This document shows positions 3,269 through 34,748 of a DNA stretch of 64,000 nucleotides, piece after piece. The notes under the pieces are model-generated. The model was not told the DNA's origin, searched no databases, and saw only the letters and a list, made by a program, of their open reading frames with translations. Every line of letters starts with the position of its first letter. Within the stretch, counting starts at the first letter, position 1. The position numbers were made by a program, and so were the translations under genes. Origin of the DNA: an uncultured Candidatus Saccharibacteria bacterium (GTDB taxonomy: Bacteria > Patescibacteriota > CPR2 > UBA1875 > CAIMLA01); contig CAZCRI010000003.1 in the NCBI GenBank assembly GCA_964501135.1, forward strand, positions 18,654 through 82,653, given 5' to 3'.

Positions 3269-3877
3269 TCAGTTTATCTGCATCTGTATTGCAAGCTTTC
3301 GCTTGGCGCGCTGCAGTGCGTTGTCGACGGCTTTGGGGTGTGACCCCAGTTCGAGAGCGATCTCTACGTAGGAGCGCCCGTTGTAGAACAAGCGCAGGCT
3401 GCTCGCCTCAAACTTCGAAAGAGACGCCGCAAGCCCCTGGCACACCGCCTCGTGCGAGAGTGCTGCCAGACAGACCTCTTCAGCCGAAACAGATGCCTCG
3501 TCGCAGAACACATCTAACAGTGTCCGGTCGCCGTCGCTGGTCATGTCAACGGTACGACTCAGAGAGACATACCCGTTGAGCGGACTGTGCTTCTTACGCA
3601 TAGCCTGCTTCACGGCGGATATGAGATGACGAGAAACACAGAGCTCAGCGAAGCTATGGAACGACGCACCCTTCGAAGGGTCGTAGTCCCAGATCGCTTT
3701 GCAGAGACCGATGTTTCCCTCCTGGACGACATCATCTCGACCTGCTCCTGCCAAGAAGTAGGAACGCGCCCTGGAACGAATCATCGGGCGGTAACGACGG
3801 AAGAGCTCGTCGTAGGCTGATTGGTCGCCCTTACGGGCGGCCACAACCAGCTGAGGATCTGCCTTTTGTGTGTGCAT
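3269..3877 (-). CDS. Sigma-70 family sigma factor, SigH (Spo0H)-like; high-GC (~62%) gene
   Basis: Region 2 (DDVVQEGNIGLCKAI), FAELCVSRHLISAVK, LNGYVSLS...DRTLLDVF and region 4 HTH; resembles Bacillus SigH by memory; strong RBS gggggga before ATG; GC far above neighbouring genes. Confidence 0.85.
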   Translation of the reverse strand: MHTQKADPQLVVAARKGDQSAYDELFRRYRPMIRSRARSYFLAGAGRDDVVQEGNIGLCKAIWDYDPSKGASFHSFAELCVSRHLISAVKQAMRKKHSPLNGYVSLSRTVDMTSDGDRTLLDVFCDEASVSAEEVCLAALSHEAVCQGLAASLSKFEASSLRLFYNGRSYVEIALELGSHPKAVDNALQRAKRKLAIQMQIN

Positions 3878-4326: not shown

Positions 4327-4358
4327 ACATTCTAACATTCTATAGAATGTTAGAATGT
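4327..4358. promoter_or_regulatory. Perfect 32-bp palindrome copy 2 (between ArsR-like gene stop and rarA start)
   Basis: acattctaacattctatagaatgttagaatgt exact. Confidence 0.85.
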
Positions 4359-4369
4359 ATATGAGAGAC

Positions 4370-5674
4370 ATGGAAAAGAAAAGTATATTTAATTTAAATG
4401 ATGCTCATAAACCGTTAGCGGAGAGGATGCGTCCTACGGACTTTGCCCATTTCTTTGGGCAAGGGGAAATTGTTGGAGAGGGAACGCTGCTACGCCAGAT
4501 CATCGAGAATGACAGCCTCGGGTCGATTATCCTCTGGGGACCTCCTGGAACCGGCAAAACTACCTTGGCACGAATTATTGCCAACCAGACCAAAAGTCAC
4601 TTCGAGGAATTCAGTGCCGTCACAAGCGGGATTGCCGACCTGAGACGGGTGGTAAAGGAAGCCCGCGAACGCCGCGAACTCTATCAGCAAAAGACGGTAC
4701 TTTTTGTTGACGAGATTCATCGTTTTAGCAAAAGTCAGCAAGACGGCTTCTTGCCCCATATTGAGAACGGCACTATAGTCCTCATTGGTGCCACTACCGA
4801 AAATCCAGGGTTCGAGATCAACTCCGCCATCATGTCTCGTTCCAAACTCTTTGAACTAAAGCCTCTTACCGAGGATGATATCAAAAATATCATCAAGCTT
4901 GCCCTCAAGGATAAAGTCAGCGGACTCGGTGAGCGAAAACTTACGATAGAAAAGAAAGCCCTAGACCAGTTAGCCGCCTTCTCGGCAGGGGATGCCCGTG
5001 TAGCCCTAAACTCGCTCGAGATCGCCACCAAGGCAAAACTTTTGAACAACAAAATTACTCAAGAAATGGTAGAACAAGCCCTGAGCAAACGCTTTGTCAG
5101 TGCCTACAAAGGTGGCGCTAATCACTATGACATTATCAGTGCATTTATCAAGTCAATGCGCGGCAGCGACCCTGACGCAGCTATCTACTGGCTCGCCAGG
5201 ATGATCGAGGGCGGGGAAGACCCCAAGTTTATTGCTCGCCGTATGCTCGTCTTTGCCTCCGAAGATATCGGCAATGCCGCACCAATGGCACTGGTCCTTG
5301 CCAACGCTACCTTTGAGGCCGTCACCAAGATTGGTCTCCCCGAGGCTCGAATCAATCTTGCCCAATGCGTAACCTATCTCGCAAGCGCTCCCAAATCCAA
5401 TGCCTCATACCTAGCAATCGATAAGGCGCTAGGCGATGTGCGCAAGGAAACCTTTAGCGGGGTCCCGAAGCACATTGTGAATGCGCCAACAGCTTTTGAT
5501 AAAAGTCAAGGAAAATCATCTGGGTATAAGTATCCTCATGATTACCCGGGCCACTATGTAAACCAGGAATATCTACCACCAGAACTTATAAATAAAAAGT
5601 ACTACTTACCTACCGAGAACGGGGGAGAAGCCGAGATTAAGACTCGCCTTGCTAAGCTAAAAGATAAAAAGTAA
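4370..5674 (+). CDS. rarA: Replication-associated recombination protein A (AAA+ ATPase RarA/MgsA)
   Basis: Walker A GPPGTGKTTLARIIA, Walker B LFVDEIHRF, C-terminal MgsA domain; ORF track starts at 4355 but ATG 4370 (MEKK) has better spacing from gagaga. Confidence 0.9.
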   Translation: MEKKSIFNLNDAHKPLAERMRPTDFAHFFGQGEIVGEGTLLRQIIENDSLGSIILWGPPGTGKTTLARIIANQTKSHFEEFSAVTSGIADLRRVVKEARERRELYQQKTVLFVDEIHRFSKSQQDGFLPHIENGTIVLIGATTENPGFEINSAIMSRSKLFELKPLTEDDIKNIIKLALKDKVSGLGERKLTIEKKALDQLAAFSAGDARVALNSLEIATKAKLLNNKITQEMVEQALSKRFVSAYKGGANHYDIISAFIKSMRGSDPDAAIYWLARMIEGGEDPKFIARRMLVFASEDIGNAAPMALVLANATFEAVTKIGLPEARINLAQCVTYLASAPKSNASYLAIDKALGDVRKETFSGVPKHIVNAPTAFDKSQGKSSGYKYPHDYPGHYVNQEYLPPELINKKYYLPTENGGEAEIKTRLAKLKDKK

Positions 5675-5715: not shown

Positions 5716-7533
5716 ATGTCAGAGATAGCCGAAATCGAGCGACCCCACGGACTAGAAGACAGCACAGAAAACCATCTAGAAGATAGCGAAATTACAGAAA
5801 CTCTTAAGCCTAGAAGCTACGTAGACTCCGATGGTACAGAGAGACAAATCTACACACTAAAGAGCAAAGACGGCAAACCCGTAGAGGTAGTATTCTACTC
5901 TCCAGAGGAGATTCCATTCAACGGTGACGTAGTTTCAGATAAGCACGTCATGATACTGGGCGAACAGCCTAAATGGCGCTCCAAGAAAGAGTGGGATACT
6001 TTTGGGCACAACATCGCAACTGAATCTCTAGGGGGAGTCAATAGCCCCTCTATGAGCCATCAAACAGAGCGGGTTCTTGAAGGTAACGGCTTAATTTTTG
6101 CCGAGTCAAACCCTACGGCGATTCTAGACTTGGCAATGATACTGACAGGGGATTCAAGCAAAGAAGATCAAAATGATCGACGAAACGCCCATCTCAAGAT
6201 AATCACCCCTAGAGCACAAGAGATGATGGACAAAATCATCGCGTGTAAGCTATATGACTCGAACGGCAAAAGAAGAAATGCTAGCAGTTATGAAGGTGAG
6301 GTACTAACCTTGCTCGCCCTGGCTGGTAATAACGAGGCTCAGGAGATACTTGACCGCAGTTACGAGCTGATGCAAAAACAGGATGCCGAAACCGAAGCAG
6401 AATTACAAGATCAAATCGCAGAAATGGGGGAGCGCAACAAAGACTCTGAAGATATGAAGATAGAAGATCTAGTTGCTGTTCATGCCACCCGATATTTACC
6501 AAAAACAATCAGTGGTACCCCGACCATTCGTACCACCTTTGATGCTACGGGCTGGGAAGTTCCACGCGACACCGTTCATTTCTCCCTGAACCATCACGTC
6601 GCTGGTCATATGTATGGTAGCTGGGATGGAGCTCCCTACGTCGTGATATCTTCCCTGGGGGATATGATGGAGACCAATGGCAAACCAGCCTCTCTTAACA
6701 CCGTAGATACTTACTTTGAGGCCACTCCTGGTACAGGGGTGAAACTCCCTGAAAGCACCTGGATAGCTAAGCCAGGAATACTGGCAGAAGGTGAAATCGT
6801 TGCGTTCGATGACGAGAAACAAGAGCTTGTATACAAAAACGAACGAATAAATGCAGCCGATATTGCCAAGCTTTACGAATCTCTCGGCTACGACGAAAAA
6901 CAATGGTTCGAATGGACCGTCCTCGACAGGCTTACTGCCGACCTTAGCCAATATGAAGAATGGTGGCGTATCCATGTCACACAAGAACAAAGCGACCGTG
7001 TTTATGAATATCGAAAAGCTGAGGGTTCGGGTCAAGAAACGACTTTGGCATTCGTTGAATTGGGTGTCGATGAAGCAGTGCGAAAAATCTGTGAAGAGAA
7101 GTTTGGGGTAGTACTCTCGGACAAAGACTTCGCTACTTTATGCAACACCATGCGTTCGTACTTTGCTAGTAAGATAAAAACTTTTGCCATCAACAGTCAG
7201 ATTACCAGAATGGGCTACAAACCAGAGCACGGCGGGATGTGGGCCTGGGGAGACTCCTGGGACGTTACTGGCTCTACCGCAAAGTTAGGTGGTGAGATTG
7301 GAGTTCCCGTAATGGCACACTCCGGCACTATCAATTCCGATATGGAAAGCTATGTACCAAGTGAATTCAGACGAATGAATGCTGAGCCTAGGGCAGACGA
7401 TGATGGTTATGCCCCCGTGAAACCCAAAGACCCTAGAGAAGTGAAAGAAGATGTAAAAACTACTGTTAGGGAAAAGGCTGATAAAATATCACCGCAACTC
7501 CGCCGCGCCCTCTACCTGATGGGGGCGCTCTAG
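5716..7533 (+). CDS. Large hypothetical protein (605 aa), acidic N-terminus, no recognisable domain
   Basis: RBS ggaga before ATG; long uninterrupted ORF at native GC; no motif recognised. Confidence 0.6.
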   Translation: MSEIAEIERPHGLEDSTENHLEDSEITETLKPRSYVDSDGTERQIYTLKSKDGKPVEVVFYSPEEIPFNGDVVSDKHVMILGEQPKWRSKKEWDTFGHNIATESLGGVNSPSMSHQTERVLEGNGLIFAESNPTAILDLAMILTGDSSKEDQNDRRNAHLKIITPRAQEMMDKIIACKLYDSNGKRRNASSYEGEVLTLLALAGNNEAQEILDRSYELMQKQDAETEAELQDQIAEMGERNKDSEDMKIEDLVAVHATRYLPKTISGTPTIRTTFDATGWEVPRDTVHFSLNHHVAGHMYGSWDGAPYVVISSLGDMMETNGKPASLNTVDTYFEATPGTGVKLPESTWIAKPGILAEGEIVAFDDEKQELVYKNERINAADIAKLYESLGYDEKQWFEWTVLDRLTADLSQYEEWWRIHVTQEQSDRVYEYRKAEGSGQETTLAFVELGVDEAVRKICEEKFGVVLSDKDFATLCNTMRSYFASKIKTFAINSQITRMGYKPEHGGMWAWGDSWDVTGSTAKLGGEIGVPVMAHSGTINSDMESYVPSEFRRMNAEPRADDDGYAPVKPKDPREVKEDVKTTVREKADKISPQLRRALYLMGAL

Positions 7534-7591: not shown

Positions 7592-7605
7592 AATAAGATT
7601 ATACT

Positions 7606-7634
7606 TGACAATTCTGTCCAAAAGACGTATTATA
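7606..7634 (+). promoter_or_regulatory. Promoter TTGACA-N17-TATTAT for high-GC gene 7698-8087
   Basis: ttgaca 7606-7611, 17-nt spacer, tattat 7629-7634. Confidence 0.45.
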
Positions 7635-7697
7635 TGCTGTCGAAATCATTCGACCTACCGACGAGGTTGCCCAAAGGCAACGAGGGGAGGTGGCTTC

Positions 7698-8087
7698 ATG
7701 CCGCCGATTGCTAGCGAAGAAGAGAAGAGGCAGTACATCGAACTTCTCCTGAAGAACGCTCGTAGACTGGACTACCGGTCTATCCTGCGTTCACCGGAAG
7801 TGAAGCAGGAGTTGAACGGTCAGGAACTGCCGTCCAGTCTTCCGGTCTGGACTATTGCCATCGACGCTGATGACACCTACATCGTCACCGGCCTCGACGC
7901 CAAGGGGCAGGAAGTCGTGAACTTCCTCTACACCATCGGTGGAGAAGAGTACGAACCACGACTCACCACCTTTGTGGCCGCCCAGCTGCTCGTCGAAGGG
8001 GCCATCATCGACCTCATCGTCCAGCACGGCCCTGGCCTCTACTCTGATGTCATCATCGACGAGGTTGTTCAGGACATGGTCGGGTAG
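7698..8087 (+). CDS. Hypothetical protein (130 aa), high-GC island gene
   Basis: RBS gaggggagg then ATG at 7698 (ORF track frame opens at 7605); ~58% GC. Confidence 0.5.
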   Translation: MPPIASEEEKRQYIELLLKNARRLDYRSILRSPEVKQELNGQELPSSLPVWTIAIDADDTYIVTGLDAKGQEVVNFLYTIGGEEYEPRLTTFVAAQLLVEGAIIDLIVQHGPGLYSDVIIDEVVQDMVG

Positions 8088-8255: not shown

Positions 8256-8413
8256 TGTGCTGAGTAATAATTAAGCTAAGGACGGTAAACCCCTTTACAA
8301 AGGCGGAAAAGGGGAATATAATCTGGCCGTCGAGATTCTTCGACGCACTTTGACTGGTGCTTATATTCGAAACGTGGCCTGGCGGCCACCAAGACCTAAG
8401 GAGGCTGGGCCTA

Positions 8414-8965
8414 ATGAACCCAACTCTTCGTTTGACATGGCGCCTCGCGCCCTATATGTTCTTCGCCCTCGGCGGACTGCTCCTCGTAGCTCTCGAACTC
8501 ACCGTCCTGATCCTGATCGGTGTTCACGGTCTGGATGCACTCACGGTGATCGGAACCATCTATCTGGCGTACGTCTGCAAGATGATCGTCGAGTACATGG
8601 GTGGCAACGTGATCGTCAACGAGCTTGGCGAACGCAACGGAAAACCGATCAAGGTCTTCCGTCCTGGCAAGAAGAACATTCGCTTTCTGAAGAAGCTTGG
8701 CTGGTATCACGACTTGGGGAACTACTATCCCGTACTCGTGAACCCTCGTGAGGGCAAGTTTAGCCTCACCAAGCATCTCTTCATGCTCGAACCTGGCTCG
8801 GAGAAGTTCTCCGACCAGCTCCTCGAAGTAGCAGCCACCAACGCGGTGGCCTACGAGGAAATCGCAAAGAAGGTCCAGACCAGCAAGTACTGCGCTTCAA
8901 GTGATCTGAGAAAGTTCGAGAAGGCGAATGCCATCTCGGAGTCAATCAAGGATATCGTGAAGTAG
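8414..8965 (+). CDS. Hypothetical membrane protein (2 TM N-terminus + soluble C-terminus), high-GC island gene
   Basis: RBS aaggagg then ATG 8414 (MNPTLRL...); hydrophobic segments FFALGGLLLVALELTVLILIGV. Confidence 0.5.
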   Translation: MNPTLRLTWRLAPYMFFALGGLLLVALELTVLILIGVHGLDALTVIGTIYLAYVCKMIVEYMGGNVIVNELGERNGKPIKVFRPGKKNIRFLKKLGWYHDLGNYYPVLVNPREGKFSLTKHLFMLEPGSEKFSDQLLEVAATNAVAYEEIAKKVQTSKYCASSDLRKFEKANAISESIKDIVK

Positions 8966-9048
8966 AACACAACCAGACTACAGACAACAGACAACACAGA
9001 ACATAGTCTGAGAAGAATAGTGAGTGTCCCACACCAGTCAAAGCGCAG

Positions 9049-9088
9049 GGGGCCGACCGCGAACAGCGGCCGGCCCCTTTGCCGTTTT
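9049..9088 (+). terminator. GC-rich rho-independent terminator
   Basis: ggggccgaccgc-gaaca-gcggccggcccc then tttgccgtttt. Confidence 0.6.
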
Positions 9089-9144
9089 ACCTTGTTTTAA
9101 GCACTACTCAAGAGTAGAATGTGGTTATACCAAGGAGAAATTCT

Positions 9145-11250
9145 ATGTCAAACCTTAACCTTAGTGATAACGAAAAACGAGATATTCAAAAATATCTTAC
9201 AGAAAATAAACTGCTCCCAGATAAATACAGGTTTCTTCTTTTTGATTCGACTCGTGAAGTAGAACTTATATGGAATGGCATGTCAGATGATATTGAGAGT
9301 TCAGTATTGCCATTTCAGACAATTGAGCATATTGATGAGCCACGAGATGAAGAGAAGATAAACTCTCAACAAGTGTTATTTGACACCTCGGGAAAACAAA
9401 TCGAAGGATGGTCAAATAAGCTTATCTGGGGCGATAACAAATTTATAATATCCTCACTTAAGAATGGCCCTCTTAGAAAACAGATTGAAGCAGAAGGCGG
9501 ACTAAAGTTAATCTATATAGACCCACCATTTGATGTCGGAGCTGACTTTTCTATGGAGGTAGAAGTTGGAGAGAATAACAGTAAGAATATCTTTACAAAA
9601 AAGCCATCGGTAATTGAAGAGGTCGCATACCGGGACACATGGGGAAAAGGCGCTGACAGCTTCATCTCAATGATATATGAACGACTGAAATTAATGAATG
9701 ATTTATTATCTGAAGACGGAAGTATTTACATACATTGTGACTCACGCGTAAATAGTTATATTCGTCTAATCCTTGACGAAGTGTTTGGAAGAGAAAACTT
9801 TGTAAATGAAATTGCCTGGTGCTACACGAGTGGCGGTGCTGGTAAAACAGCTTTTTCAAAAAAACATGATACGATATACCTCTATTCGAAGGCCAATAAG
9901 CACATTTTTAACATTCAATACTATAAGCGTTATGCCCTAATTCAAGAAGGGGAAGAAGTAGGTTTTGATCCTAGGATACAGTACTATAAAGATGAAAAGG
10001 GGAGAAGTTATCGTTTAAATCTTACTCTTGACTGGTGGAGCGACATTGGAATTGTTTCACCAAATAGCAACACAGAAAGGACGGACTATCCAACACAAAA
10101 GCCAGAGGGCTTACTTCAGAGAATAATTGAGACTTCATCAAATAAGGGCGATTTAGTAGCCGACTTTTTCTGTGGTTCAGGTACAACATTGGCAGTAGCA
10201 GAAAAACTGGGTCGTAAATGGATTGGTTCTGATCTTGGACGGTTTTCAATTCACACCACTCGTAAACGAATGATTGGCGTGCAACGAGAACTAAAAAATG
10301 CCGGGACAGACTTTAGACCATTTGAGATACTTAATATCGGTAAATACGAGAGGGAAAAGTACCTCGGTATTAACGATAGTTTGCGCGATGAAGAAAAACG
10401 AATGCAAAGAGAAAATAAGGAACGCGAATTTATCAAACTCATTCTTTCAGCCTATAAAGCCGAGGCTGTAAATTCCTTTAATAATTTCGTTGGGAAGAAG
10501 CGAGATAGGCTGGTAGCCGTGGGGTCAATTGATACGCCAGTAACAAATGACTTTCTGGAGAATATAATTATTGAGTGCAAAGAAAAGCATATTACAAAAG
10601 TAGACATTCTCGGATTTGACTATGAAATGGGCCTGGACTTTGAAACAACAAAGAAGCTAGGTATTGATGTTCAGTTTAAGGTCATACCTCGAGAAGTATT
10701 TGATAAAAGAGCAATAGAAAGAGGGCAAGTAAAGTTCTATGATGTTGCTTACATTGAAGTTAAACCCATTATCAAGGGCAGAGGAAATGAAAAAGAGGTA
10801 GCAATTGAACTAACCGACTTTAGCGTTTTTTACAATCAGGATAATACCGGAGAGGTTGAGGAAAAATTACAGGCCGGCGGCAGTAAAATTGTTATTGAAA
10901 ATGGACAGGTTATTAAAATTTTCAAGGATAAACAAAGCGGTATAGTAGAACGTGAAACTCTCACGAAGAAATGGACAGACTGGATTGATTATTGGTCTGT
11001 TGACTTTGAATTTGAAAGCAAGAAAGAACTTATCAACATCGCAGATCCCGCAACTGGTAGGGAGGAAAAGAAGTGGACTGGTAATTACATTTTTGAAAAT
11101 GAATGGCAATCCTTTAGAACTAAAAAAAACAGAAACTTAGAGTTAACATCTGCATATAAAATTACGTCGAAGGGTAAAATGAAAATTGCTATCAAGGTAA
11201 TTGATATTTTCGGTAACGATACCACCAAGGTAATTGAGGTGAATGTATGA
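9145..11250 (+). CDS. mod: Type III restriction-modification methyltransferase (Mod), beta-class N6A/N4C MTase
   Basis: Motif IV DPPF (IYIDPPFDV) precedes motif I FCGSGTT (ADFFCGSGTTLAVAEKLGRKWIGSD) with TRD between, the Type III Mod order; RBS aaggaga before ATG 9145; low GC (~37%). Confidence 0.8.
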   Translation: MSNLNLSDNEKRDIQKYLTENKLLPDKYRFLLFDSTREVELIWNGMSDDIESSVLPFQTIEHIDEPRDEEKINSQQVLFDTSGKQIEGWSNKLIWGDNKFIISSLKNGPLRKQIEAEGGLKLIYIDPPFDVGADFSMEVEVGENNSKNIFTKKPSVIEEVAYRDTWGKGADSFISMIYERLKLMNDLLSEDGSIYIHCDSRVNSYIRLILDEVFGRENFVNEIAWCYTSGGAGKTAFSKKHDTIYLYSKANKHIFNIQYYKRYALIQEGEEVGFDPRIQYYKDEKGRSYRLNLTLDWWSDIGIVSPNSNTERTDYPTQKPEGLLQRIIETSSNKGDLVADFFCGSGTTLAVAEKLGRKWIGSDLGRFSIHTTRKRMIGVQRELKNAGTDFRPFEILNIGKYEREKYLGINDSLRDEEKRMQRENKEREFIKLILSAYKAEAVNSFNNFVGKKRDRLVAVGSIDTPVTNDFLENIIIECKEKHITKVDILGFDYEMGLDFETTKKLGIDVQFKVIPREVFDKRAIERGQVKFYDVAYIEVKPIIKGRGNEKEVAIELTDFSVFYNQDNTGEVEEKLQAGGSKIVIENGQVIKIFKDKQSGIVERETLTKKWTDWIDYWSVDFEFESKKELINIADPATGREEKKWTGNYIFENEWQSFRTKKNRNLELTSAYKITSKGKMKIAIKVIDIFGNDTTKVIEVNV

Positions 11251-11804
11251 GCCAGCAATTCATTCCTTTTAGCCATGAGGACATAGAACTAAAAAATGCC
11301 TTGGTCGGTAAAGCAAGGGAATTAAGGAGCTCTGAAGATCTTGGTGCACAACTTTCATCGGCACTAATTTACGCAAGTATTACTGAGTATTTAGCCGAGA
11401 ACTTGTTAGCCAACTTAAGATACCTTGTTTATCGCTCCTCCTATGTTGACTTTGCCGGAATAATATTTATTGATGAGAGAAAGAAGACAAATAAGGCACA
11501 AAAGCAAACACTCGGAGACTCCAAGAACAACCTTGGAAAATACAGTTTCCCAGATAAGCCAGATATTATGGCGGTATTAGAGGAGATAAATAAATCAAGG
11601 AATAATCTATTCCACAATCTCGCCAAAGTTAAAGAGTCGGAATTGCATAAGATAGATACAGACATCAAATGTATACAGAATAATACAGAAGAATTTATTG
11701 AAAAAGTAAATGTACTTTATGCTGGTTTGCAGAAATTGGTAATACCAGAGGCGCCCCAAGTGCCGACTGATACTAAGGAGGGAAAAGAAAATGGCACTGC
11801 ATAA
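11247..11804 (+). CDS. Hypothetical 185-aa protein inserted between mod and res (overlaps both)
   Basis: ATGA overlap with mod stop and 14-nt overlap with res start; no motif recognised. Confidence 0.6.
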   Translation: MSQQFIPFSHEDIELKNALVGKARELRSSEDLGAQLSSALIYASITEYLAENLLANLRYLVYRSSYVDFAGIIFIDERKKTNKAQKQTLGDSKNNLGKYSFPDKPDIMAVLEEINKSRNNLFHNLAKVKESELHKIDTDIKCIQNNTEEFIEKVNVLYAGLQKLVIPEAPQVPTDTKEGKENGTA

Positions 11805-14472
11805 AGATTTTCCTAAGGACAAATTTCAAATACTCGACCCAGCGATTAGATGGTTTCCGGCTGAGGAGGATTTACGTAAGGATGGCTACGAAAAACTCCT
11901 GCCGCCTTTCGTACCTGAGTTAAGGGAAAGAGTAGCGGAGTGGCGTAAGGATCACTATGAGGGTGCTAGTAAGACCTCAAAGGCACTTCTAAGCTGGTGG
12001 TTTAAGGAGCCCCATACTATTTATGGCAAAGATGGTACAAGTATAGCTTTTCAATACTATTTTGCACAAAGAGAAGCCGTAGAAACAATCATCTGGTTAT
12101 ATGAAACGGAAAAAGTAGAGGGTAAATACGATTTAATAAAGTTTGACAAACTGGGACGGGTCAGTCCTAATATGTTTAGTGAAGAGTGGCTACGCTTTGT
12201 TATTAAGATGGCAACAGGTAGTGGCAAGACAAAAGTTATGAGTTTGCTTCTCGCCTGGTCTTACTTTCACAAGCTTTATGAAGAAGGGTCCCAGCTTTCC
12301 AAGAACTTCTTGCTCATAACGCCAAATATCATTGTTCTAGACAGGATTAAAAATGACTTTGTAGGTCTCAAGATATTCTACGAAGACCCAATTCTCCCAG
12401 ACAATGGCTACCATGGTCAAAACTGGCAAGATGATTTTCAGTTAAAGCTTCATCTACAGGATGAGGTTGGTGCTATTTCTAAATCTGGAAACATCTTTCT
12501 AACAAACATACACAGAGTGTATGAAGGAAGCATCAACGAGGCTAGTGCTGATGATGTTGATGTATCAAATTATTTTATGGGCAGTAAGGTGACAGGCAAA
12601 ACTAATGACTCAAAGGTAGATTTGGGTGAAATAGTAAGAGATATTGATGAGCTTATGATAATCAATGATGAAGCGCATCATATCCATGATCCGAATATGG
12701 CTTGGTCAAAGTCAATTGAAGATATTCATAACAAACTTCTACAAAAAGGTGGCAAACTTGCCTTGCAAATTGATGTTACCGCGACGCCAAAAAACAATCG
12801 TGGAGAGATTTTTGTTCAGACCGTAACTGACTACCCACTGGTTGAGGCCATCCACCAGGGTGTTGTCAAAAATCCAGTTTTGCCAGATCTTGCTAGCCAG
12901 GCAAAGTTACAAGAAAAACAAAGCTCAATTTTTTCTGAAAAGTATGAAGACTACATCCGACTTGGTGTAGAAGAGTGGGCCAAAACCTATAAAGAACTTG
13001 AACCGACAGGCAAGAAATCGATCTTGTTCATAATGACTGACGATACCAAGAACTGTGATGACGTAGCTGAGTTTTTAGAGAGGAGCTACGCACAACTCAA
13101 AGGGGCTGTTTTAACAATTCACACTAACCAAAGTGGTGAAATATCAGAGACAGTCTCAGGGAAGAAAGAAAAAGAATTACAAGAACTTCGTAAAAAGGCA
13201 AATGAGATAGATAGTCTTGAGAGTCCGTATAGGGTTATCGTTTCGGTACTTATGCTAAAAGAAGGTTGGGATGTAAAGAACGTAACAACTATCGTGGGGT
13301 TGCGACCATATGGTTCAGACTCAAAAATTCTCCCCGAACAAACTCTCGGTCGCGGTCTTCGTAGAATGTATTTTGGACAAGATGTTGAGGAATACGTGAG
13401 CGTCATCGGTACACCTGCATTTATGGAGTTTGTAGAGTCAATCAAGGCTGAAGGTGTTGAGTTAGAAAAGAGAAGAATGGATCGTTCAGGCACTCCGATT
13501 ACACCGACTGTTATTGAGGTTGATACCGCAAATGTCAAAAAGGATATTGATAATCTAGATATTGAGCTGCCAGTTCTTACTCCGAGAATACAGAGAGAAT
13601 ACAAAAATCTGAATCTTTTGAGTGTTGATAAATTCAAACACAAAAGAATCAAAATAAAACAGTTCTCAGAGGAAGAGAAAAAAGAGATTGTTTTCAAGGA
13701 AATAATTGAAGACAAGTTACATCATACAACAGTCCTGAATAGTTCTATTGAACCTAACTATCAAAGTGTAGTTGGATTCTTTGTTCAACGAATTATGAAA
13801 GAACTAAGGTTGTTCGGTTGCTACGATATACTTTTTGGTAAAGTAAAGGTGTTTATAACTCACGACTTATTTGAAAAGGAAGTTGATCTAAACGACTCCA
13901 ATATTCTGAGAAACCTGTCTGAATTAGAGGCAGTCAAAACAATAGTTGAGACATTCAAAAAGGAAATAAATGACCTGACAGTACAGGATGTTGGTGATAC
14001 TGAAATAAAGAATTATCTCAAAGTAAGTAGCGCGAGACCTTTCGTTGTTACTGATGCTAAATATCTTCTACCGAAGAAAAGCGTATTCAATAAGATAGTT
14101 GGAGATAGTGATTTTGAGCTGGAATTTGCAGATTTTCTTGAGAGAGCTGATGATGTTATTTCATTTGCGAAGAACTACCTAGAAATTCACTTCAAGATTG
14201 ACTATAAAAATGCAAGCGGAGCAATTTCCAGCTATTACCCAGATTTCTTTGTCAAAACAGATAATAAGACGGTCTATATTGTAGAAACTAAGGGACGAGA
14301 AGATCTAGACGATATAGAGAAAATTAAGAGATTGGCACAATGGTGTGAAGACGCAACTGAAAGACAAAAGAAGATAGAATACAAGATGCTTTACGTGAAG
14401 CAAGACGAATGGGAGAGATATAGACCAAGTAAATTCACCGAGTTGATTACTAGTATTGGAATGAAGCCATGA
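11791..14472 (+). CDS. res: Type III restriction enzyme Res subunit (SF2 helicase + C-terminal PD-(D/E)xK nuclease)
   Basis: Walker A MATGSGKTKVM, DEAH box IINDEAHHIHD, helicase motif VI-like region, C-terminal YYPDFFV...VYIVETKGRED nuclease motif. Confidence 0.8.
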   Translation: MALHKDFPKDKFQILDPAIRWFPAEEDLRKDGYEKLLPPFVPELRERVAEWRKDHYEGASKTSKALLSWWFKEPHTIYGKDGTSIAFQYYFAQREAVETIIWLYETEKVEGKYDLIKFDKLGRVSPNMFSEEWLRFVIKMATGSGKTKVMSLLLAWSYFHKLYEEGSQLSKNFLLITPNIIVLDRIKNDFVGLKIFYEDPILPDNGYHGQNWQDDFQLKLHLQDEVGAISKSGNIFLTNIHRVYEGSINEASADDVDVSNYFMGSKVTGKTNDSKVDLGEIVRDIDELMIINDEAHHIHDPNMAWSKSIEDIHNKLLQKGGKLALQIDVTATPKNNRGEIFVQTVTDYPLVEAIHQGVVKNPVLPDLASQAKLQEKQSSIFSEKYEDYIRLGVEEWAKTYKELEPTGKKSILFIMTDDTKNCDDVAEFLERSYAQLKGAVLTIHTNQSGEISETVSGKKEKELQELRKKANEIDSLESPYRVIVSVLMLKEGWDVKNVTTIVGLRPYGSDSKILPEQTLGRGLRRMYFGQDVEEYVSVIGTPAFMEFVESIKAEGVELEKRRMDRSGTPITPTVIEVDTANVKKDIDNLDIELPVLTPRIQREYKNLNLLSVDKFKHKRIKIKQFSEEEKKEIVFKEIIEDKLHHTTVLNSSIEPNYQSVVGFFVQRIMKELRLFGCYDILFGKVKVFITHDLFEKEVDLNDSNILRNLSELEAVKTIVETFKKEINDLTVQDVGDTEIKNYLKVSSARPFVVTDAKYLLPKKSVFNKIVGDSDFELEFADFLERADDVISFAKNYLEIHFKIDYKNASGAISSYYPDFFVKTDNKTVYIVETKGREDLDDIEKIKRLAQWCEDATERQKKIEYKMLYVKQDEWERYRPSKFTELITSIGMKP

Positions 14473-15317
14473 ACTGGACTCCCATAATTGAAGCCGTCTA
14501 TACCGCACTCCGTGTCGGGGCTATCATCCTGCCGCTATTTTTGGTTGTTGACTTTCTAAACCACAAATATGGAAACGACATCGAGAATATTCTACGCAAG
14601 TCCCGCAAGTTCATGCCTATCGTCGGCGCCCTCCTCGGCATCTTACCGGGATGCAACGTGGCGGTAGTTACGGCCATCTTCTTTACTGAGGGCATTGCCT
14701 CACTGGGAACCTTGGTCGCGGTACTTATCGCCAAATCGGACGAAGCGCTTTACGTATTCTTACCCCTAGGGTTCAAGTCTTTCTTACCGATATTACTCGC
14801 TAAGCTAGTACTAGCTATTCTTGCTGGATATCTCATAGATTTCCTACCAAAGATGAAAATGCGCGCTGCCAAACTAGAAACCGATATCGAATTCTGCTGC
14901 GCCCAGCATCCACACCACGACGGTAGAAAAGGGGAGATCGTCCACGCCATCAAGCACACCGTTCGTGTAATGCTGATCGTTTTTGTTACCCTAGCACTCT
15001 TCAACTACGTCCAAGATACCTACGGCACCGGTTTCCTGACTGATTTCTTTGGTCACATACGAATACTAGAGCCGATTATTGCCGCCTTTGCCGGACTAAT
15101 ACCGGGCTGTGGCACCAGTATCGCTATCGCAACACTATATGTACAAAAAGTGATTACCTTTGGCGCTGCGGTTGCAGGCCTCTCCACAGCGAGTGGGGAA
15201 GTGTTTGTCGTTCTGGCTGCACGCGGAGTAAAACCAAAGTATCTAGTAACGATTGCGGCGATACTAGTAATCATCAGCTCCATAGCTGGCATTGCGCTTG
15301 ATTTAATCATCAAATAA
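14469..15317 (+). CDS. Integral membrane protein with internal duplication (two LPGC(N/G) motifs), putative permease; translationally coupled to res
   Basis: ATGA overlap with res stop; ~8 hydrophobic helices; ILPGCNVAV and LIPGCGTSIA repeats. Confidence 0.6.
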   Translation: MNWTPIIEAVYTALRVGAIILPLFLVVDFLNHKYGNDIENILRKSRKFMPIVGALLGILPGCNVAVVTAIFFTEGIASLGTLVAVLIAKSDEALYVFLPLGFKSFLPILLAKLVLAILAGYLIDFLPKMKMRAAKLETDIEFCCAQHPHHDGRKGEIVHAIKHTVRVMLIVFVTLALFNYVQDTYGTGFLTDFFGHIRILEPIIAAFAGLIPGCGTSIAIATLYVQKVITFGAAVAGLSTASGEVFVVLAARGVKPKYLVTIAAILVIISSIAGIALDLIIK

Positions 15318-15339
15318 GCACTAATTATTTTTACATTTA

Positions 15340-15508
15340 CCACTTTTGGCAGCAAAAGTGGTGCAAAACTGCCGACTCCTTGCAAAATCGCAAGTGTTGC
15401 TTCTAACTCACTCGTTCTTAAATGACAAAACTCGTAATGCTCAAACATTGTCTTTTAAGATGCTCGCTCGGGTCGTCGCGCGCTGTATTTTGCAGGTCGC
15501 GGAAAGAA
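15340..15508 (+). repeat. ~170-bp repeat R1 (conserved ends, variable middle); inverted partner at 21073-21254
   Basis: ccacttttggcagcaaaagtgg hairpin, tgcaaaactgccgactccttgcaaaatcgc and ctcgggtcgtcgc.cgctgtattttgcaggtcgcggaaagaa shared with reverse complement of 21073-21254. Confidence 0.8.
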
Positions 15509-15626: not shown

Positions 15627-15718
15627 TACTTTTGTGACTACGGACAAAAGTATCGGCTAAGCCTTGCTTTAGCAAGGCAAAGAAGAATAGTTTGCTTTAC
15701 CATGGTCGCAATGCAGCA
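15627..15718 (+). promoter_or_regulatory. H1-H2-M composite element copy B (H1 15627-15654, H2 15662-15679, degenerate M ~15701-15718)
   Basis: atacttttgt-gactacgg-acaaaagtat (stem shortened on both arms relative to copy at 100-129, i.e. compensatory); gccttgctttagcaaggc. Confidence 0.45.
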
Positions 15719-15790: not shown

Positions 15791-16873
15791 ATGAAAACAG
15801 CAAACCCACAAAAAACAAATATGAAGGGCCAAAAACTCGACGTAAATGCAGAAGTTGAGTTTATTTTTGCTGCTCCAAAGCTAAAAAAAGAGCGCGACCA
15901 AGCTGTCATTACTGATCGCTTTGGGCTTACTGGAGCCAAACCAAAGACCCTAGAGGAAATTGGTAAGGCCCTGGGGATTACCCGTGAGCGCGTGCGACAG
16001 ATCGAGAAAAATACCCTCAAGAAGCTCTCTGACTTTGTTGCTACCGACCTGAGAGGTCAGGAGATTTCTTCGGTTATTCTGGGCGCTATCAAGAGCGAAG
16101 GCGGCGTAGTCCGTGCCACAACCCTAGATAACGACATCCTCGGTGAGAACGCCAGTGCCAAGGCCAAGCACCAGCTTAGCTTTATCGTGGCCTGCTCTAC
16201 CGACATTTCACTATACACAGAGAGCAATCACGCTCATCGCAGCTACTTCATGGCGCCTCTTGCCTCACCAGTAATTGATAAGGTGCTAAAAGAAGCCGTT
16301 TCTATCCTAAAGAGTGAAGATAAGCCAGTAGAAGAGAAGGCACTAGTTGCGAAGATTCGCAAAGCTGTCTCGGATCTAGAGCCCAAGACTATTGTCGCTA
16401 TCATCGCTATCAGTAAGGTAATATTGCGTACTGAGTCGGGTCACCTCGGTCTCTCTCATTGGCGCGACATCAACCCAAAGAGCATCAAGGACAAGACCTA
16501 TTACATTCTAAAGAAACACAACAAGCCACTGCACTATACCGACATCGCTGATCACATTCAGAACTTTGGCGGTAAAGAGAAACATGTCACCAAGCAAGCG
16601 GTACACAACGAGTTGATTCGTGACGAACGTTTTGTCCTGATTGGCCGTGGTATCTACGCACTCTCTGAGTGGGGATACGCCTCTGGTGTTGTTGAGGAAG
16701 TAATCGAAACCGTCCTGATCGAGGCCGGACGCCCAATGCACAAAGACGACATTATCGATGAAGTTCTAAAGCGTCGCATGGTAAAAGAAACAACTATTTT
16801 ACTAAATCTACAAAAAAAGCGCTTCAAAAGGGTAGCGAGAGCAACGTATACTGTATCTAACGGGAGGGAATAA
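15791..16873 (+). CDS. Sigma-70 region-4 (HTH) domain protein with ~280-aa C-terminal extension
   Basis: [27 protein letters not shown] matches the sigma-70 region 4.2 signature; the remainder is unrecognised. Confidence 0.6.
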
Positions 16874-19800
16874 GTGCTGATTCAAGATATTAGCCTGGCG
16901 ATACTCGGCGGAATGTGGTCCGTCGTGGTTTGGACATGGTGGATAGTAGTGCCGATACTTGGCTACTTCACCTGGAAGAACTACAAAAAAGCAGAGTATG
17001 TTGAGGCGATTGAAACAGTCGTTCTCTCGATTAAAATCCCTAAGAATAACGAAAAAGGTCCGATAGCTGCCGAGATGATGCTAGCGGCGCTTCATGGTAT
17101 CTTGCATCCAAAAAGCCAGCAAAAGAAGGGGACTAGTGTACAAGAGCACCTGAGTTTCGAGATTGTCTCGACCCTCAATGCGATTGAATTCTTTGTTTGG
17201 GTACCGACACACCTAAAGGACTTCGTAGAAGGCCAGGTATACGCCCAGTATCCAACCGCCGAGATTACTACTGTTAGTGACTATTCACTCGATATCGATA
17301 TTGACGATGATAAAGTAGACGACGCCGTCGTCGGCACCGAGCTGGTACTGACGAAGGACGAGATTTATCCGATCAAGACCTTTCTGAACTTTGACGTCGA
17401 CCCACTGGCCGGCATTACAGGTATGCTTTCGAAAATTGAGCAAAAGAGTGAACAGGTCTGGATTCAGATTCTCGCCAAGCCTGTCGATGACGAATGGCGT
17501 GATGGCTCACTAGGGCACATTGCGAGCAAAAAGGGTGGGGCTGGCAGTGCTGATACCTGGGTGCATAAGCTAATCGATATTTTGATTATGCCCCTGCAGG
17601 TAATACCATACATGATCAATGCGATCATTTCGCCAATGACACCAGAACAGAAGAAGAAGCAGGAAGAAAAAGAGAAGAAGGAGAAGGAGAAGAAGGAGAA
17701 GGAAGCTCCGAAGCTCTCTCATTCTGAAGAAACTGAACTCTCTGCGATCGAAGAGAAGGCCAATAAGCTTGGGTACAAAGTAATTATCCGTATCTGTTAC
17801 CTCGCCAAAAGCCCTGAGAAAGCCAAGGAGCGCATCCAGGCCGTGATTGGTGCCTTCAAACAATTCAATACTACTAACCTCAATGGTTTTCAGGGGAGCG
17901 GCCTCTACACCGGACAAGACTTCTTGGACGCTTACCGTGCTCGTCTTTTCAATAATCACGGCTACACTCTAAATATCGAGGAACTCGCGAGCCTCTACCA
18001 CTTACCACACGTTTCAGTAGAAACCCCGAATATCCTCTGGACCTCATCTAAAAAGGGCGAGCCACCAAGCAGCTTGCACATTATTGACTCCGAAGACACT
18101 GTCGATAAAGAGCTCACACCGATGGGAACCACTACCTTCCGTAACGGACAGCGTACCTTTGGTATCACTAGAGACGACCGCCGTAGACATATGTACATCA
18201 TCGGTAAGAGTGGTGTCGGTAAATCACGTATGATGGCAAATCTTGCTATCAACGACATCATTAATGGTGAGGGTGTCGCCGTAGTCGACCCACATGGTGA
18301 GCTTATCGAGCTGATCATGAAATACATTCCAAAGGAACGTATCGACGACGTGATTTATCTGAACCCAGCTGACAAAGATTTTCCGATTGGTTTTAATCCC
18401 CTGGAATCTCCAGAGGGAATGCGTGAAGAGACCGCCAAGGGCTTTATCTCGGTACTCAAACGTATGTTTGGGTATTCGTGGGGTCCTCGTTTGGAATACG
18501 TCCTAAACCACACTGTACTGGCTCTCTCTGAGGTAGAAGGCTCAACGATGCTCGGCATCGTCCGTCTCCTGACCGACAAGGGCTATCGCAAGCGCATCGT
18601 CGAGCAAGTTACCGACCCGGTAGTGCAGATGTTCTGGCTCAAGGAATTCTCGACCTATAACGACAAGATGGCCACCGAAACTGTAGCTCCTATCCTAAAC
18701 AAGGTAGGACAATTTACGGCTTCGGCGATAATTCGTAACATCGTCGGCCAGCCGAAGAGTAGTATCGACTTTTCGGAAATAATGAATACCGGAAAGATAC
18801 TTCTCGTGGACCTCTCTACCGGTAAGATAGGGGAGGTAAACTCCGAACTGCTGGGCTCCCTGATCATTACCAAGCTGCAGCTTGCTGCGATGCAACGTGC
18901 CTACATCCCCGAGGAAGAGCGCAAAGACTTCTACCTCTACGTCGACGAATTCCAGAACTTTGCTACTGACTCCTTTGCGACGATTCTCTCAGAAGCCCGT
19001 AAGTATCGCTTGTCCCTCTGCGTGGCCAATCAGTACATTGCTCAGATGGAAGAAACTGTACGCGACGCTGTCTTTGGTAACGTCGGTACTCTCGTCTCTT
19101 TCCGCGTTGGCGCCACTGATGCCTCTTACCTCGAGAAAGAGTTTGAACCAGTATTTACCCAGAACGACCTGATCAACCTCGATAACCGACACATGTATCT
19201 AAATATGCTGATCAACGGCGTTACGAGTATACCTTTCTCAGCGATGTCCCTAAATACACCAGAGATGAAAGAAGATTGCTCGGCGATTGTAAAGGCCGTC
19301 TCGCGCGAGAAATACGGCAAGAAGCGTGAACTGGTCGAGGATGAGGTAAAACACTGGTACAACGTGGACTCAGTAGTTGCTGGTATCAACGCCAACGAGA
19401 AGGACGACCCAATTGTGACCAAACCAAAGCCTACCATTGTTCGTGAAAAATCTGAGCAGGGGAGTACCCCTAGCCAGCCACTACGAGAAAAGAAAGAAAC
19501 TAATATTAATCCCCCTGCCAGCAAGACCACCGAGAGTCCAAAGAAGAGTGACCTTCAGCTCGCCATAATTGCAAATACTAAAAAATCTGGGAAAGCAGCC
19601 GACAAACCTATGACCGAGAAACAAAAAGTAATCGCCGAGCTCGAGAAGAGTGCGGACTACATCGTGCGCCACAAGGACAAGGACGACAAGTACGTCTTTT
19701 TGCCAAACCACAAACCAGAAGGAGTGATTCCTGACAAGCGTGGCCGCCAAAAGGGCAACAACTACAAGAAGAATGGCCAAAAGATCTACGAAGTAAAGAT

Positions 19801-20449
19801 TAGTATGTACGAACCCAAAGAACATGATCTCTTTGGCGATGGTCGTGCTCCTGATGTCTGGGTAGGTACGGCTGCAGAAATGATCGACCAGTTACAGGCT
19901 ATCGGTGCTGGCCTAGGTGGTGGCAGCAAATTCCTCGGCGTCGAGGACCACACAGATACTCCCGCTATCCTAGAAGCGCTCCTTGCAAAGCAGAAAACCG
20001 CATCTACAGAGAAGGCTCGTGAGACGATTGCGGATAAAATCGGGGTAGATACACTATCTAGCCTCAAGAAGGCCGTCAGCGTGCCCGAAAAACCCGTAGA
20101 AGCGGTCAAGGAACCTACTCCAGAGGCAGTAAAAGAAGAAACCAAAACCCCTGAGGTCGAGGTGGCTCCTGAAAAGCCAGCTGCACCCGAGAAAACTGAA
20201 ATAAAAGAAACAACAAAACCCAAAGAACCCGTAGCTGCCGAACCAGTAGGGAAGAGCCTCGAAGAGATCAAGGACGTCCTGCTCTCTGTCTCCCATCCTA
20301 AAGAGCACCCTATTTACCGTGAAAAGGTCGAGAAGCAGATCACCCCAGAGGACTTTCATAACCTTAAAACAATTGAGCCACACGAACGAATCAGGGTGGT
20401 GACCAAAGAACTGAAGCCAGGGGAGACAGTTCACCTAACAAAACCATAA
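16874..20449 (+). CDS. Membrane-anchored VirD4/TraD-like (type IV coupling protein family) P-loop ATPase with long K/E/P-rich C-terminal tail
   Basis: N-terminal TM helices; Walker A IIGKSGVGKSRMMAN and DPHGE (HerA/DUF87-like); FYLYVDEFQNFAT (TraG-D_C type Walker B); low-complexity KEKKEKEKKEKE and PEKP repeats. Confidence 0.65.
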   Translation: MLIQDISLAILGGMWSVVVWTWWIVVPILGYFTWKNYKKAEYVEAIETVVLSIKIPKNNEKGPIAAEMMLAALHGILHPKSQQKKGTSVQEHLSFEIVSTLNAIEFFVWVPTHLKDFVEGQVYAQYPTAEITTVSDYSLDIDIDDDKVDDAVVGTELVLTKDEIYPIKTFLNFDVDPLAGITGMLSKIEQKSEQVWIQILAKPVDDEWRDGSLGHIASKKGGAGSADTWVHKLIDILIMPLQVIPYMINAIISPMTPEQKKKQEEKEKKEKEKKEKEAPKLSHSEETELSAIEEKANKLGYKVIIRICYLAKSPEKAKERIQAVIGAFKQFNTTNLNGFQGSGLYTGQDFLDAYRARLFNNHGYTLNIEELASLYHLPHVSVETPNILWTSSKKGEPPSSLHIIDSEDTVDKELTPMGTTTFRNGQRTFGITRDDRRRHMYIIGKSGVGKSRMMANLAINDIINGEGVAVVDPHGELIELIMKYIPKERIDDVIYLNPADKDFPIGFNPLESPEGMREETAKGFISVLKRMFGYSWGPRLEYVLNHTVLALSEVEGSTMLGIVRLLTDKGYRKRIVEQVTDPVVQMFWLKEFSTYNDKMATETVAPILNKVGQFTASAIIRNIVGQPKSSIDFSEIMNTGKILLVDLSTGKIGEVNSELLGSLIITKLQLAAMQRAYIPEEERKDFYLYVDEFQNFATDSFATILSEARKYRLSLCVANQYIAQMEETVRDAVFGNVGTLVSFRVGATDASYLEKEFEPVFTQNDLINLDNRHMYLNMLINGVTSIPFSAMSLNTPEMKEDCSAIVKAVSREKYGKKRELVEDEVKHWYNVDSVVAGINANEKDDPIVTKPKPTIVREKSEQGSTPSQPLREKKETNINPPASKTTESPKKSDLQLAIIANTKKSGKAADKPMTEKQKVIAELEKSADYIVRHKDKDDKYVFLPNHKPEGVIPDKRGRQKGNNYKKNGQKIYEVKISMYEPKEHDLFGDGRAPDVWVGTAAEMIDQLQAIGAGLGGGSKFLGVEDHTDTPAILEALLAKQKTASTEKARETIADKIGVDTLSSLKKAVSVPEKPVEAVKEPTPEAVKEETKTPEVEVAPEKPAAPEKTEIKETTKPKEPVAAEPVGKSLEEIKDVLLSVSHPKEHPIYREKVEKQITPEDFHNLKTIEPHERIRVVTKELKPGETVHLTKP

Positions 20450-21072: not shown

Positions 21073-21254
21073 TTCTTTCCGCGACCTGCAAAATACAGCG
21101 AGCGACGACCCGAGTGACTATCATAAAAAATAATGTTTGACCCCGACGCTACCGTCGGGAGAGTTTTGCTTTTTATGAAGGAACGAAGTAGGAGTGACAC
21201 TAGCGATTTTGCAAGGAGTCGGCAGTTTTGCACCACTTTTGCTGTCAAAAGTGG
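21073..21254 (-). repeat. Repeat R2, inverted copy of R1
   Basis: Ends near-identical to R1 in reverse complement; middle ~80 bp diverged. Confidence 0.8.
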
Positions 21255-21259
21255 TAAGG

Positions 21260-21366
21260 ATTTGTGACTACGGACAAAATTACTAACGTGTTGAGAAAGA
21301 GATCCTGAAACAAGTTCAGGATGGCGTGTAGGTGAGATTGCCGCGCTTCGCTCGCAATGACGAGGG
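21260..21366 (+). promoter_or_regulatory. H1-H2-M composite element copy C (H1 21260-21280, H2 21302-21322, M 21343-21366)
   Basis: atttgt-gactacgg-acaaaat; atcctgaa-acaag-ttcaggat; gcgcttcgctcgcaatgacgaggg. Confidence 0.4.
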
Positions 21367-34477: not shown

Positions 34478-34551
34478 TGGCAGGGGCGGAAGGAATCGAA
34501 CCCTCAATAAAGGTTTTGGAGACCTTCGTTATACCGTTTAACTACGCCCCT
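34478..34551 (-). tRNA. tRNA-Trp (anticodon CCA)
   Basis: Cloverleaf parsed by hand: acceptor aggggcg/cgcccct, anticodon stem aaggt/acctt, loop ctCCAaa, T-loop ttcgatt, 3' CCA encoded. Confidence 0.85.
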
Positions 34552-34577
34552 TCAAAGCCCACTTCGGGGCTTACATA

Positions 34578-34748
34578 TTATTTAGTTTCTTTGTGCAGTG
34601 TGTGAACGTGTTCGCGCTTACAGAACTTCTTGATTTCCAAGCGAGCTGTAGTGTTACGAGTGTTTTTTGTAGTAGCGTAATTACGCTCCTTACATTCAGT
34701 ACACTCAAGTGTAATCACTGGACGAATGTCTTTTTTCTTAGTTGCCAT
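34578..34748 (-). CDS. rpmG: 50S ribosomal protein L33
   Basis: [32 protein letters not shown]...; only the C-terminal 56 codons of ORF-track entry 34578-35006 are real. Confidence 0.9.

Follow-up and report, generated by a model that had tools for sequence, protein, structure and literature searches.

In this report we describe a 64,000-nucleotide (nt) stretch of DNA from an uncultured Candidatus Saccharibacteria bacterium (contig CAZCRI010000003.1), which is referred to as a whole as the window and in which coordinates are counted from the first letter. Positions 9145-14472 are a three-gene operon that was horizontally acquired as a unit and placed immediately before a native arsP gene. The operon consists of the methyltransferase gene (mod) and the restriction gene (res) of a Type III-like restriction-modification (R-M) system, with a third gene, here called X, between them. 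X encodes a putative ribonuclease (RNase) of the HEPN superfamily and sits in a slot which in related loci is filled with many different cargo genes or is empty. Our best reading, to which we give slightly better than an even chance, is a layered defence in which DNA restriction is combined with X as a co-expressed abortive-infection RNase.

The assignment of X starts from the motif RNNLFH at residues 118-123 (R118-x4-H123), which is a HEPN Rx4-6H motif. In this motif a polar residue usually follows the arginine, and the activity of the superfamily is that of a metal-independent endoribonuclease. In an alignment of 88 sequences of the X family, with 19-85% identity to X, R118 and H123 are the sole invariant columns, and the motif is present in every full-length homologue. 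The claim of the original prediction that this protein of 185 amino acids (aa) has no recognisable motif must therefore be withdrawn. By a full hidden Markov model scan of 1.84 billion representatives the family was found to comprise 128 cluster representatives at E<=1e-3, nearly all of them single-domain proteins of 150-210 aa. A word-indexed search gave 8 relatives, and an 8-sequence alignment of X was used to scan the public contig collections.

A further argument arises from the predicted structure, a check that had been suggested for this gene. The AlphaFold2 model of X reaches a pLDDT (predicted local distance difference test) score of 93.8 and represents an all-alpha up-down helical bundle of the HEPN type. 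It was matched to the folds of the sacsin HEPN domain (score 8.9), Csm6 (8.8) and AbiA (8.7), also to those of HI0074, TTHA0636 and SO_3166 and, lower down, to HepS and LsoA. As designed helical bundles score in the same range, the fold match alone is not decisive. Taken together, the modelled fold and the invariant Rx4H dyad make a convincing case for a HEPN protein, and we regard X as a putative RNase with R118/H123 as its catalytic-type dyad. Sequence and profile searches of the PDB with X yielded just coiled-coil noise.

The open reading frame (ORF) of X is a genuine gene. Compared with the 84% identical copy at locus L006 its ratio of nonsynonymous to synonymous substitution rates (dN/dS) is 0.044, which indicates strong purifying selection; given this value, the family of 128 clusters and the confident fold, a spurious frame was rejected. 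Three known types of HEPN protein were rejected as well. A divergent DUF4145 protein is not supported by any match to PF13643 or by BLASTP similarity to the DUF4145 cargo of locus L090. A protein of the PrrC/RloC type would require an ABC-ATPase domain, which is absent from this single domain of 185 aa without a P-loop match. A HEPN-MNT toxin would require a minimal nucleotidyltransferase, while the neighbours of X are Mod and Res and its solo homologues are without a conserved neighbour.

To place X in context we searched species-representative genomes for relatives of Res; 565 were detected and the best 80, with 65-89% identity, were kept. The hosts of these 80 are mostly Patescibacteria metagenome-assembled genomes (MAGs), accompanied by a Pacearchaeota MAG, Bdellovibrionales, Planctomycetales, Omnitrophota and others. 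Res relatives are also found in DPANN and, at 61% identity, on plasmids of Sinorhizobium and Aminobacter; altogether the hosts of the Mod/Res family are mostly uncultured. The census of the slot covers the 68 loci that hold both mod and res. It is filled in 45 out of the 68 (377-2380 nt, each with one to four co-oriented ORFs), contains a short non-coding gap of 80-192 nt in 3, and is empty in the 20 that show the plain two-gene form. The cargo lies exactly between the conserved end of mod (KVIEVNI, followed by the stop codon) and the conserved start of res (MALHKDFP). In 18 out of 49 filled loci, which include the window, L006 and L090, the cargo starts with an ATGA on the mod stop codon, and in 26 more with an ATG within 15 nt.

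When cargo ORFs with 70 aa or more, among them X, were clustered by BLASTP, 48 clusters resulted, 37 of them singletons (47 and 36 for the 45 filled loci). The recognised cargo comprises NYN proteins, often along with KTSC, DUF6864 or WYL (about 8 loci), Schlafen AlbA_2 with HATPase_c_4 (8 loci), ABC ATPases of the AriA/OLD/GajA type, one with TOPRIM (4 loci), DUF4145 (3 loci, L090 counted), STAND-like ATPases (2 loci), DUF3800 (2 loci) and, in one locus each, HEPN_Apea, a pair of HTH-M78 and DUF4411/PIN, a ClpP-like protease, a trypsin-like protease and Bro-N. About half of the scanned cargo representatives, which were taken from nearly every substantial cluster, are without a Pfam or PADLOC match. 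The identifiable cargo is, as judged from domain matches, of the abortive-infection type, and its families are mutually unrelated. The earlier notion of a variant defence system was too narrow, since X is one among many cargo genes that can take each other's place. As an observation on its own, the slots of L013, L017, L044 and L063 contain a recurrent cassette of KTSC (70 aa) and NYN (about 260 aa), often after DUF6864 or an ORF of 112-192 aa without annotation. This cassette is a conserved module and may be a defence system in its own right.

How fast the cargo is exchanged can be seen at L090, whose Res is the closest to that of the window (94% identical) and whose genes are arranged as mod-cargo-res with identical overlaps. 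The slot of L090 is occupied by a DUF4145 protein of 197 aa, for which BLASTP shows no similarity to X. The DNA identity between the window and L090 stops right after GTATGAGC and returns about 20 nt before the res ATG, and the two cargo ORFs share as their stop a TAA that lies within the conserved 5' end of res. At the other nearest neighbours, with Res 93-95% identical, the cargo differs or the slot is empty. As neighbours with near-identical Res differ in their cargo, the slot turns over fast; the simplest explanation for this turnover is that the conserved gene ends recombine homologously. Neither at the borders of the cargo nor at those of the island were specific recombination sites or repeats found; the junction alignments show only the conserved 3' coding end of mod and 5' coding end of res.

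The mod-X-res architecture recurs in relatives, namely at L006 (X 84%, Mod 76% and Res 87% identical to the window) and at L093 (X 46%, Mod 57%, Res 61%). At L098 (2847-7936) mod lacks its last approximately 60 aa and is followed by an X homologue (40% identity), NYN and Fic/DOC in this order; res is missing and a ClpP-like SDH protease is encoded upstream. This may be a decayed R-M locus in which the effectors were retained. X homologues were also sought in the annotated phage and plasmid collections, where no match was obtained. A side observation concerns L093 (3263-4268), where an 85-aa ORF with one predicted transmembrane helix lies between the X homologue and res and recalls small membrane effectors such as RonA.

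In the window itself the ORF listing gives four co-oriented ORFs, mod, X, res and a membrane gene (Table 1). The mod stop and the X start share an ATGA at 11247-11250, the last 14 nt of X (11791-11804) are also the first of res, with the TAA stop of X inside the conserved res 5' end, and the res stop shares an ATGA at 14469-14472 with the ATG of the membrane gene. These three overlaps and the gene coordinates had been read correctly in the original prediction. The mod ORF opens with a GTG at 9121, and the relatives align from residue 1-6 of the protein starting at ATG 9145. The proportion of guanine and cytosine (GC) drops from 0.53 at 8-9 kb to 0.39 at 9-14 kb, and it amounts to 0.373 in mod, 0.378 in X, 0.384 in res, 0.484 in the membrane gene and 0.46 in the window. 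The description of the whole block as AT-rich thus holds for the first three genes and fails for the membrane gene, which is like the host background; only mod, X and res make up the AT-rich island. In the junction alignments the similarity among members of the Mod/Res family extends from the mod ATG to the res stop. The horizontal acquisition assumed for the block is supported.

Table 1. Features of the mod-X-res operon and its immediate borders in the window.
Feature	Position	Strand	Basis or remark
Hairpin, GC-rich, followed by a T-rich tract	9047..9089	+	read from sequence
AAGGAG ribosome-binding site	9132..9137	+	7 nt before mod ATG 9145; read from sequence
mod, 701 aa, Type III-like beta-class DNA methyltransferase	9145..11250	+	motifs; Pfam, PADLOC and PDB matches
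X, 185 aa, HEPN-superfamily protein, cargo in the mod/res slot	11247..11804	+	R118/H123 (RNNLFH)
res, 893 aa, Type III-like restriction subunit	11791..14472	+	SF2 helicase and C-terminal PD-ExK
arsP-family membrane transporter, 282 aa, outside the system	14469..15317	+	ATG overlaps the res stop

The hairpin upstream of mod probably serves as terminator of the preceding gene and forms the left border of the low-GC island; it was not among the entries of a consensus scan. The counts of a promoter scan were not above the shuffled expectation, and the arrangement TTGTTT-17-TAGAAT at 9092-9120, recognised by eye, is sub-threshold and is not claimed as a promoter. A repeat scan covering the island gave just short direct repeats of low identity, and the sole long repeat is located downstream of arsP.

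Type III systems are two-gene mod-res operons with ATP-dependent cleavage approximately 25-27 bp from asymmetric sites. Cleavage needs two inversely oriented unmethylated sites, and Mod hemimethylates. In the window the order of mod before res is kept with the third gene between them. Mod shows DPPF126 before FCGSG342, which is the beta-class order, and is matched by Pfam N6_N4_Mtase (4.4e-43) and PADLOC MTase_III (1.5e-118), with EcoP15I Mod among its PDB matches (1e-13). Res possesses GSGKT143, DEAH293, TATP330 and QTLGR517 and at its C-terminus a PD817...ETK834 nuclease; Pfam reports ResIII (1.2e-17) and, in the C-terminal part, RE_endonuc (3e-6) and Tn7_TnsA-like_N (5e-6). PADLOC REase_III matches the helicase part only (1e-22), the NCBIfam restriction endonuclease family BPTD_3080 matches at 3.5e-85 with 286.7 bits compared to a cut-off of 800, and no PDB sequence, EcoP15I Res included, was matched at E<=0.01. 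By these motifs and profiles the two genes are an intact Type III-like pair and no pseudogenes, in agreement with their earlier identification as a beta-class methyltransferase and a DEAH helicase with PD-ExK nuclease.

The long C-terminus of Mod, which had been called unusual, is real but not odd for this locus, as its approximately 330 aa are conserved throughout the family (0.6-0.8 identity over 64 relatives). A PDB sequence search with the C-terminal 321 aa gave no match. The conservation profile places the hypervariable segment resembling a target recognition domain (TRD) at aa 226-325, between the motifs and in the classical beta-class position. An unusual TRD at the C-terminus was rejected, the C-terminal region being conserved and the variable segment central. 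Phase-variable simple repeats were not found in mod.

With these components a layered defence could work as follows. In the first layer host DNA would be methylated by Mod, and unmodified incoming DNA would be cut by Mod/Res. X would be made from the same transcript via translational coupling and would be present in latent form, as an RNase that is probably dimeric and employs the R118/H123 dyad. In the second layer, an infection that has got past restriction would lead X to cleave cellular or phage RNA, so that translation is halted and growth stops. We infer the RNase activity, the latency, the trigger and the physical coupling of X to Mod/Res. The strict position, orientation and coupling of the cargo are an argument that its co-expression has been selected. 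A self-sensing effector that gains from co-expression and co-transfer with the R-M genes appears more likely than one under strictly PrrC-like restraint; solo homologues, relatives with an empty slot and the diversity of the cargo disfavour a strict restraint by Mod/Res.

Several observations weigh against this layered defence. Some of them concern the assignment of X: its best Pfam match, HEPN_LA2681, has an E-value of 0.055 and 13 bits compared to a cut-off of 27, and its best PADLOC match, CARF_HEPN/Csx1, is sub-threshold as well (1e-4, with a range to 1e-2). None of the 88 family members reaches the threshold in Pfam; many of the weak matches that recur are to the six HEPN families DUF3644, RiboL-PSP-HEPN, LA2681, Csm6_HEPN, HepT and RNase 2-5A. 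Like the weak matches of X itself, this concentration in HEPN families speaks for a HEPN protein; the non-HEPN family DegS, however, recurs as often as the top HEPN families. X was therefore filed in the HEPN superfamily and in no named family. Other observations concern its connection to Mod/Res. In the 20 loci with an empty slot the spacing of mod stop codon and res ATG is -1 to 6 nt; as these are about a third of the relatives, Mod-Res needs no X. Solo X homologues with about 40-57% identity occur at L001-L005, L007, L008/9 and L095, at L008/9 next to a Gp49/HTH pair and at L095 between dnaKJ and a deaminase gene, and an all-against-all BLASTP of the neighbours revealed no conserved partner or antitoxin. 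In the tree of X the R-M-embedded and the solo copies are interspersed, which indicates that X does not depend on Mod/Res. The coupling between X and Mod/Res may be merely co-transfer.

An alternative explanation is that of a pure hitch-hiker, which we consider possible although it falls well short of an even chance. Here the cargo would consist of autonomous selfish or abortive-infection genes that use the conserved mod 3' and res 5' ends as homology arms and borrow the operon promoter, without any functional interaction. It is in line with the solo homologues in unrelated contexts without a common partner, the intermixed tree, the exchange of cargo between loci with Res 93-95% identical, the mutually unrelated cargo families and the strong conservation of the flanking mod and res ends in DNA. 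The single exact position, the single orientation and the usual translational coupling suggest selection for co-expression instead, the identifiable cargo is almost wholly of a defence or abortive-infection type, and like cargo families in BREX and R-M loci are read as back-up effectors (PMC3710099, PMC12839542). Most predictions are common to the hitch-hiker and the layered defence, functional synergy being the sole difference between them.

A strict guardian of the PrrC type, in which X is bound to Mod/Res in an inactive state (perhaps at the C-terminal domain of Mod) and released by anti-restriction proteins to cleave tRNA or other RNA, is in our opinion rather unlikely. It could account for the fact that X lies within the operon and overlaps both neighbours at its start and stop, and for the X homologues next to members of the Mod family at L006, L093 and, without res, L098. 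The nuclease fold of PrrC is HEPN as well, R-M-embedded HEPNs have been proposed to act in this way (PMC3710099), and with Ronin and EcoR22I there are R-M-like modules that trigger cell death when inhibited (10.1101/2023.04.06.535777). X is, however, without the ABC-ATPase regulatory domain of PrrC, solo homologues occur without any R-M system, and the cargo comprises more than 40 unrelated families, whose restraint by a single Mod/Res surface is hard to envisage.

A more novel reading is that the mod/res junction is a dedicated plug-in site, with Mod/Res serving as a common sensor of infection or anti-restriction that licenses whichever effector occupies the slot (HEPN, NYN, Schlafen, OLD, PIN, a protease or one of the many unknown proteins), perhaps through the conserved 330-aa C-terminal domain of Mod. 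We give it a small probability. If it were true, the architecture would be that of one guard with many interchangeable executioners, concentrated in the tiny genomes of Patescibacteria, and the unannotated cargo families would be new abortive-infection effectors.

Very improbable is a role of X as a non-catalytic accessory or regulatory R-M subunit, for instance in assembly or in the timing of restriction versus methylation after transfer. The tight translational coupling between the two subunits and the existence of HEPN domains that are non-catalytic binders (PMC3710099) would suit such a role, but the invariant Rx4H dyad points to catalysis, a third of the close relatives have an empty slot, the nearest Res relative carries an unrelated gene, and solo homologues exist.

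The membrane gene is a native flanking transporter and no fourth component of the system. It belongs to the ArsP_2/arsenic_eff family, with 183 bits for NCBIfam NF037962 (cut-off 100) and 5e-33 and 115 bits for Pfam ArsP_2 (PF11449; cut-off 32.5). Of the duplicated LPGC motifs noticed earlier, PGC was found at residues 60 and 212. None of the 80 related loci has an arsP homologue downstream of res. L099/L100 carry an arsP orthologue (89% identical) without mod-X-res and in synteny with the window (topoisomerase I ... arsP, Sigma70_r4/HARE-HTH gene, TrwB/DUF87-type ATPase); in their DNA the similarity to the window sets in again at 14460, which is 9 nt ahead of the arsP ATG. This empty site excludes arsP from the unit. 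Most of the closest arsP homologues (64-89% identity) also have 282 aa, so that the arsP start codon appears native. The four-gene defence system first proposed, in which mod, X and res are joined by a membrane effector through translational coupling, can be practically dismissed, as the ATGA overlap of the membrane gene with the res stop is opposed by an arsenic_eff score above the cut-off, a GC content of 0.484 compared to 0.37-0.38, the absence from the 80 loci and the retention of arsP, HARE-HTH gene and ATPase without mod-X-res in L099/L100.

The surroundings of the operon provide some additional observations. Upstream, the distance from the topoisomerase I gene (313-2472) to mod is about 6.7 kb, compared to about 1.9 kb from topA to arsP in L099; the R-M operon is therefore part of a larger variable island. 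Between 2300 and 9050 the ORFs 5716-7533 (605 aa), 7605-8087 and 8357-8965 are without a Pfam match; further ORFs are located at 2474-2854, 3269-3877 (minus strand) and 4355-5674. The other genes of this island might also be related to defence.

Downstream of arsP an inverted repeat of about 170 nt (15337-15508 and 21073-21257) consists of two segments, 97 nt with 86% and 68 nt with 90% complementarity. It brackets 5.6 kb that contain the gene of a Sigma70_r4 and HARE-HTH protein (15791-16873) and that of a 1191-aa TrwB/TraD/DUF87-type ATPase (16874-20449). A direct repeat of 22 nt is found at 15631-15652 and 21261-21282, and a copy of the inverted-repeat element is present in the syntenic L099 at 2291-2467. 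Regarded as RNA, an arm of the inverted repeat folds slightly better than its shuffles (z -2.6). It could be a regulatory repeat or one resembling a miniature inverted-repeat transposable element, or could represent the ends of an invertible or mobile module. Farther away, a cluster of four tRNA genes on the minus strand (34478-35236; Trp-CCA, Thr-GGT, Tyr-GTA and Thr-TGT) suggests a chromosomal context, and beside it lies a low-GC patch at 32-34 kb (0.39-0.40).

With the assignment to the HEPN superfamily, a gene formerly listed as unknown becomes a testable putative RNase toxin with two mutable residues. The slot offers a cheap place of high specificity to seek new abortive-infection effectors, much as do the defence hot spots found in P2/P4 satellites and the effectors embedded in BREX. 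At this locus it can also be asked, in a compact setting, whether R-M enzymes and suicide effectors are wired together in their function or just travel together. The organisms concerned have very small genomes, and little is known of their immune repertoires.

The occurrence of HEPN genes within R-M operons is well documented, and guardians of R-M systems are an accepted concept. Anantharaman et al. 2013 linked at least 16 HEPN clades to R-M operons and proposed a PrrC-like function (PMC3710099), and both PrrC and PARIS were described as R-M guardians (PMC12707154). Like the R-M-embedded HEPNs of the families DUF4145, ApeA, AbiJ, AbiU2 and Abi2 (PMC3710099), X is a small HEPN protein with an Rx4-6H motif, a predicted latent RNase and a potential second line of defence. 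In contrast to them it stays below the threshold in every curated family and belongs to an uncatalogued family of 128 clusters, and its host system is a Type III-like mod/res pair with one exact junction between the subunits. With PrrC of the Type Ic system EcoprrI, a guardian that fires when restriction is blocked, X has in common that a HEPN-fold nuclease gene lies between R-M subunit genes. PrrC differs by its N-terminal ABC-ATPase and its Type I hsd locus, whereas X is a single domain of 185 aa in a Type III-like operon and has solo relatives. To HepS (PDB 9oik), a standalone HEPN abortive-infection sensor, X has no detectable sequence relationship.

The closest parallel to the repertoire of the slot is BREX, a likewise methylation-based operon in whose loci HEPN, PIN, Schlafen and OLD back-up effectors are embedded (PMC12839542). 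That repertoire is nearly the same as the cargo reported here, comprising HEPN, PIN, Schlafen with a minimal histidine-kinase-like ATPase, and OLD/TOPRIM. The differences are the two-gene Mod/Res core and the location of all cargo in one precisely delimited slot, filled in about two thirds of those loci where mod and res are both present. Silas et al. described Ronin and EcoR22I as R-M or R-M-like modules that are tied to programmed cell death and triggered by anti-restriction proteins (10.1101/2023.04.06.535777). In Ronin the effector is a membrane protein of 61 aa linked to HsdMS; EcoR22I is of Type III like the system in the window, but without a separate effector gene between mod and res. 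The classical Type III systems EcoP15I and EcoP1I share the upstream position of mod, the beta-class Mod with its central TRD and the Res composed of SF2 helicase and PD-ExK nuclease. The system in the window is distinguished from them by the cargo slot, by a Res without a PDB sequence match and by the extra conserved 330-aa C-terminal region of Mod.

In the literature we found neither the X family nor a cargo slot between mod and res of Type III systems reported; the coverage of this search was incomplete and such a report may exist. Three aspects appear to be new: the X family, which is covered by no curated model, the large unannotated share of the slot cargo, and the single exact and rapidly exchanging mod/res slot in a widespread, mainly Patescibacteria-associated Type III-like family.

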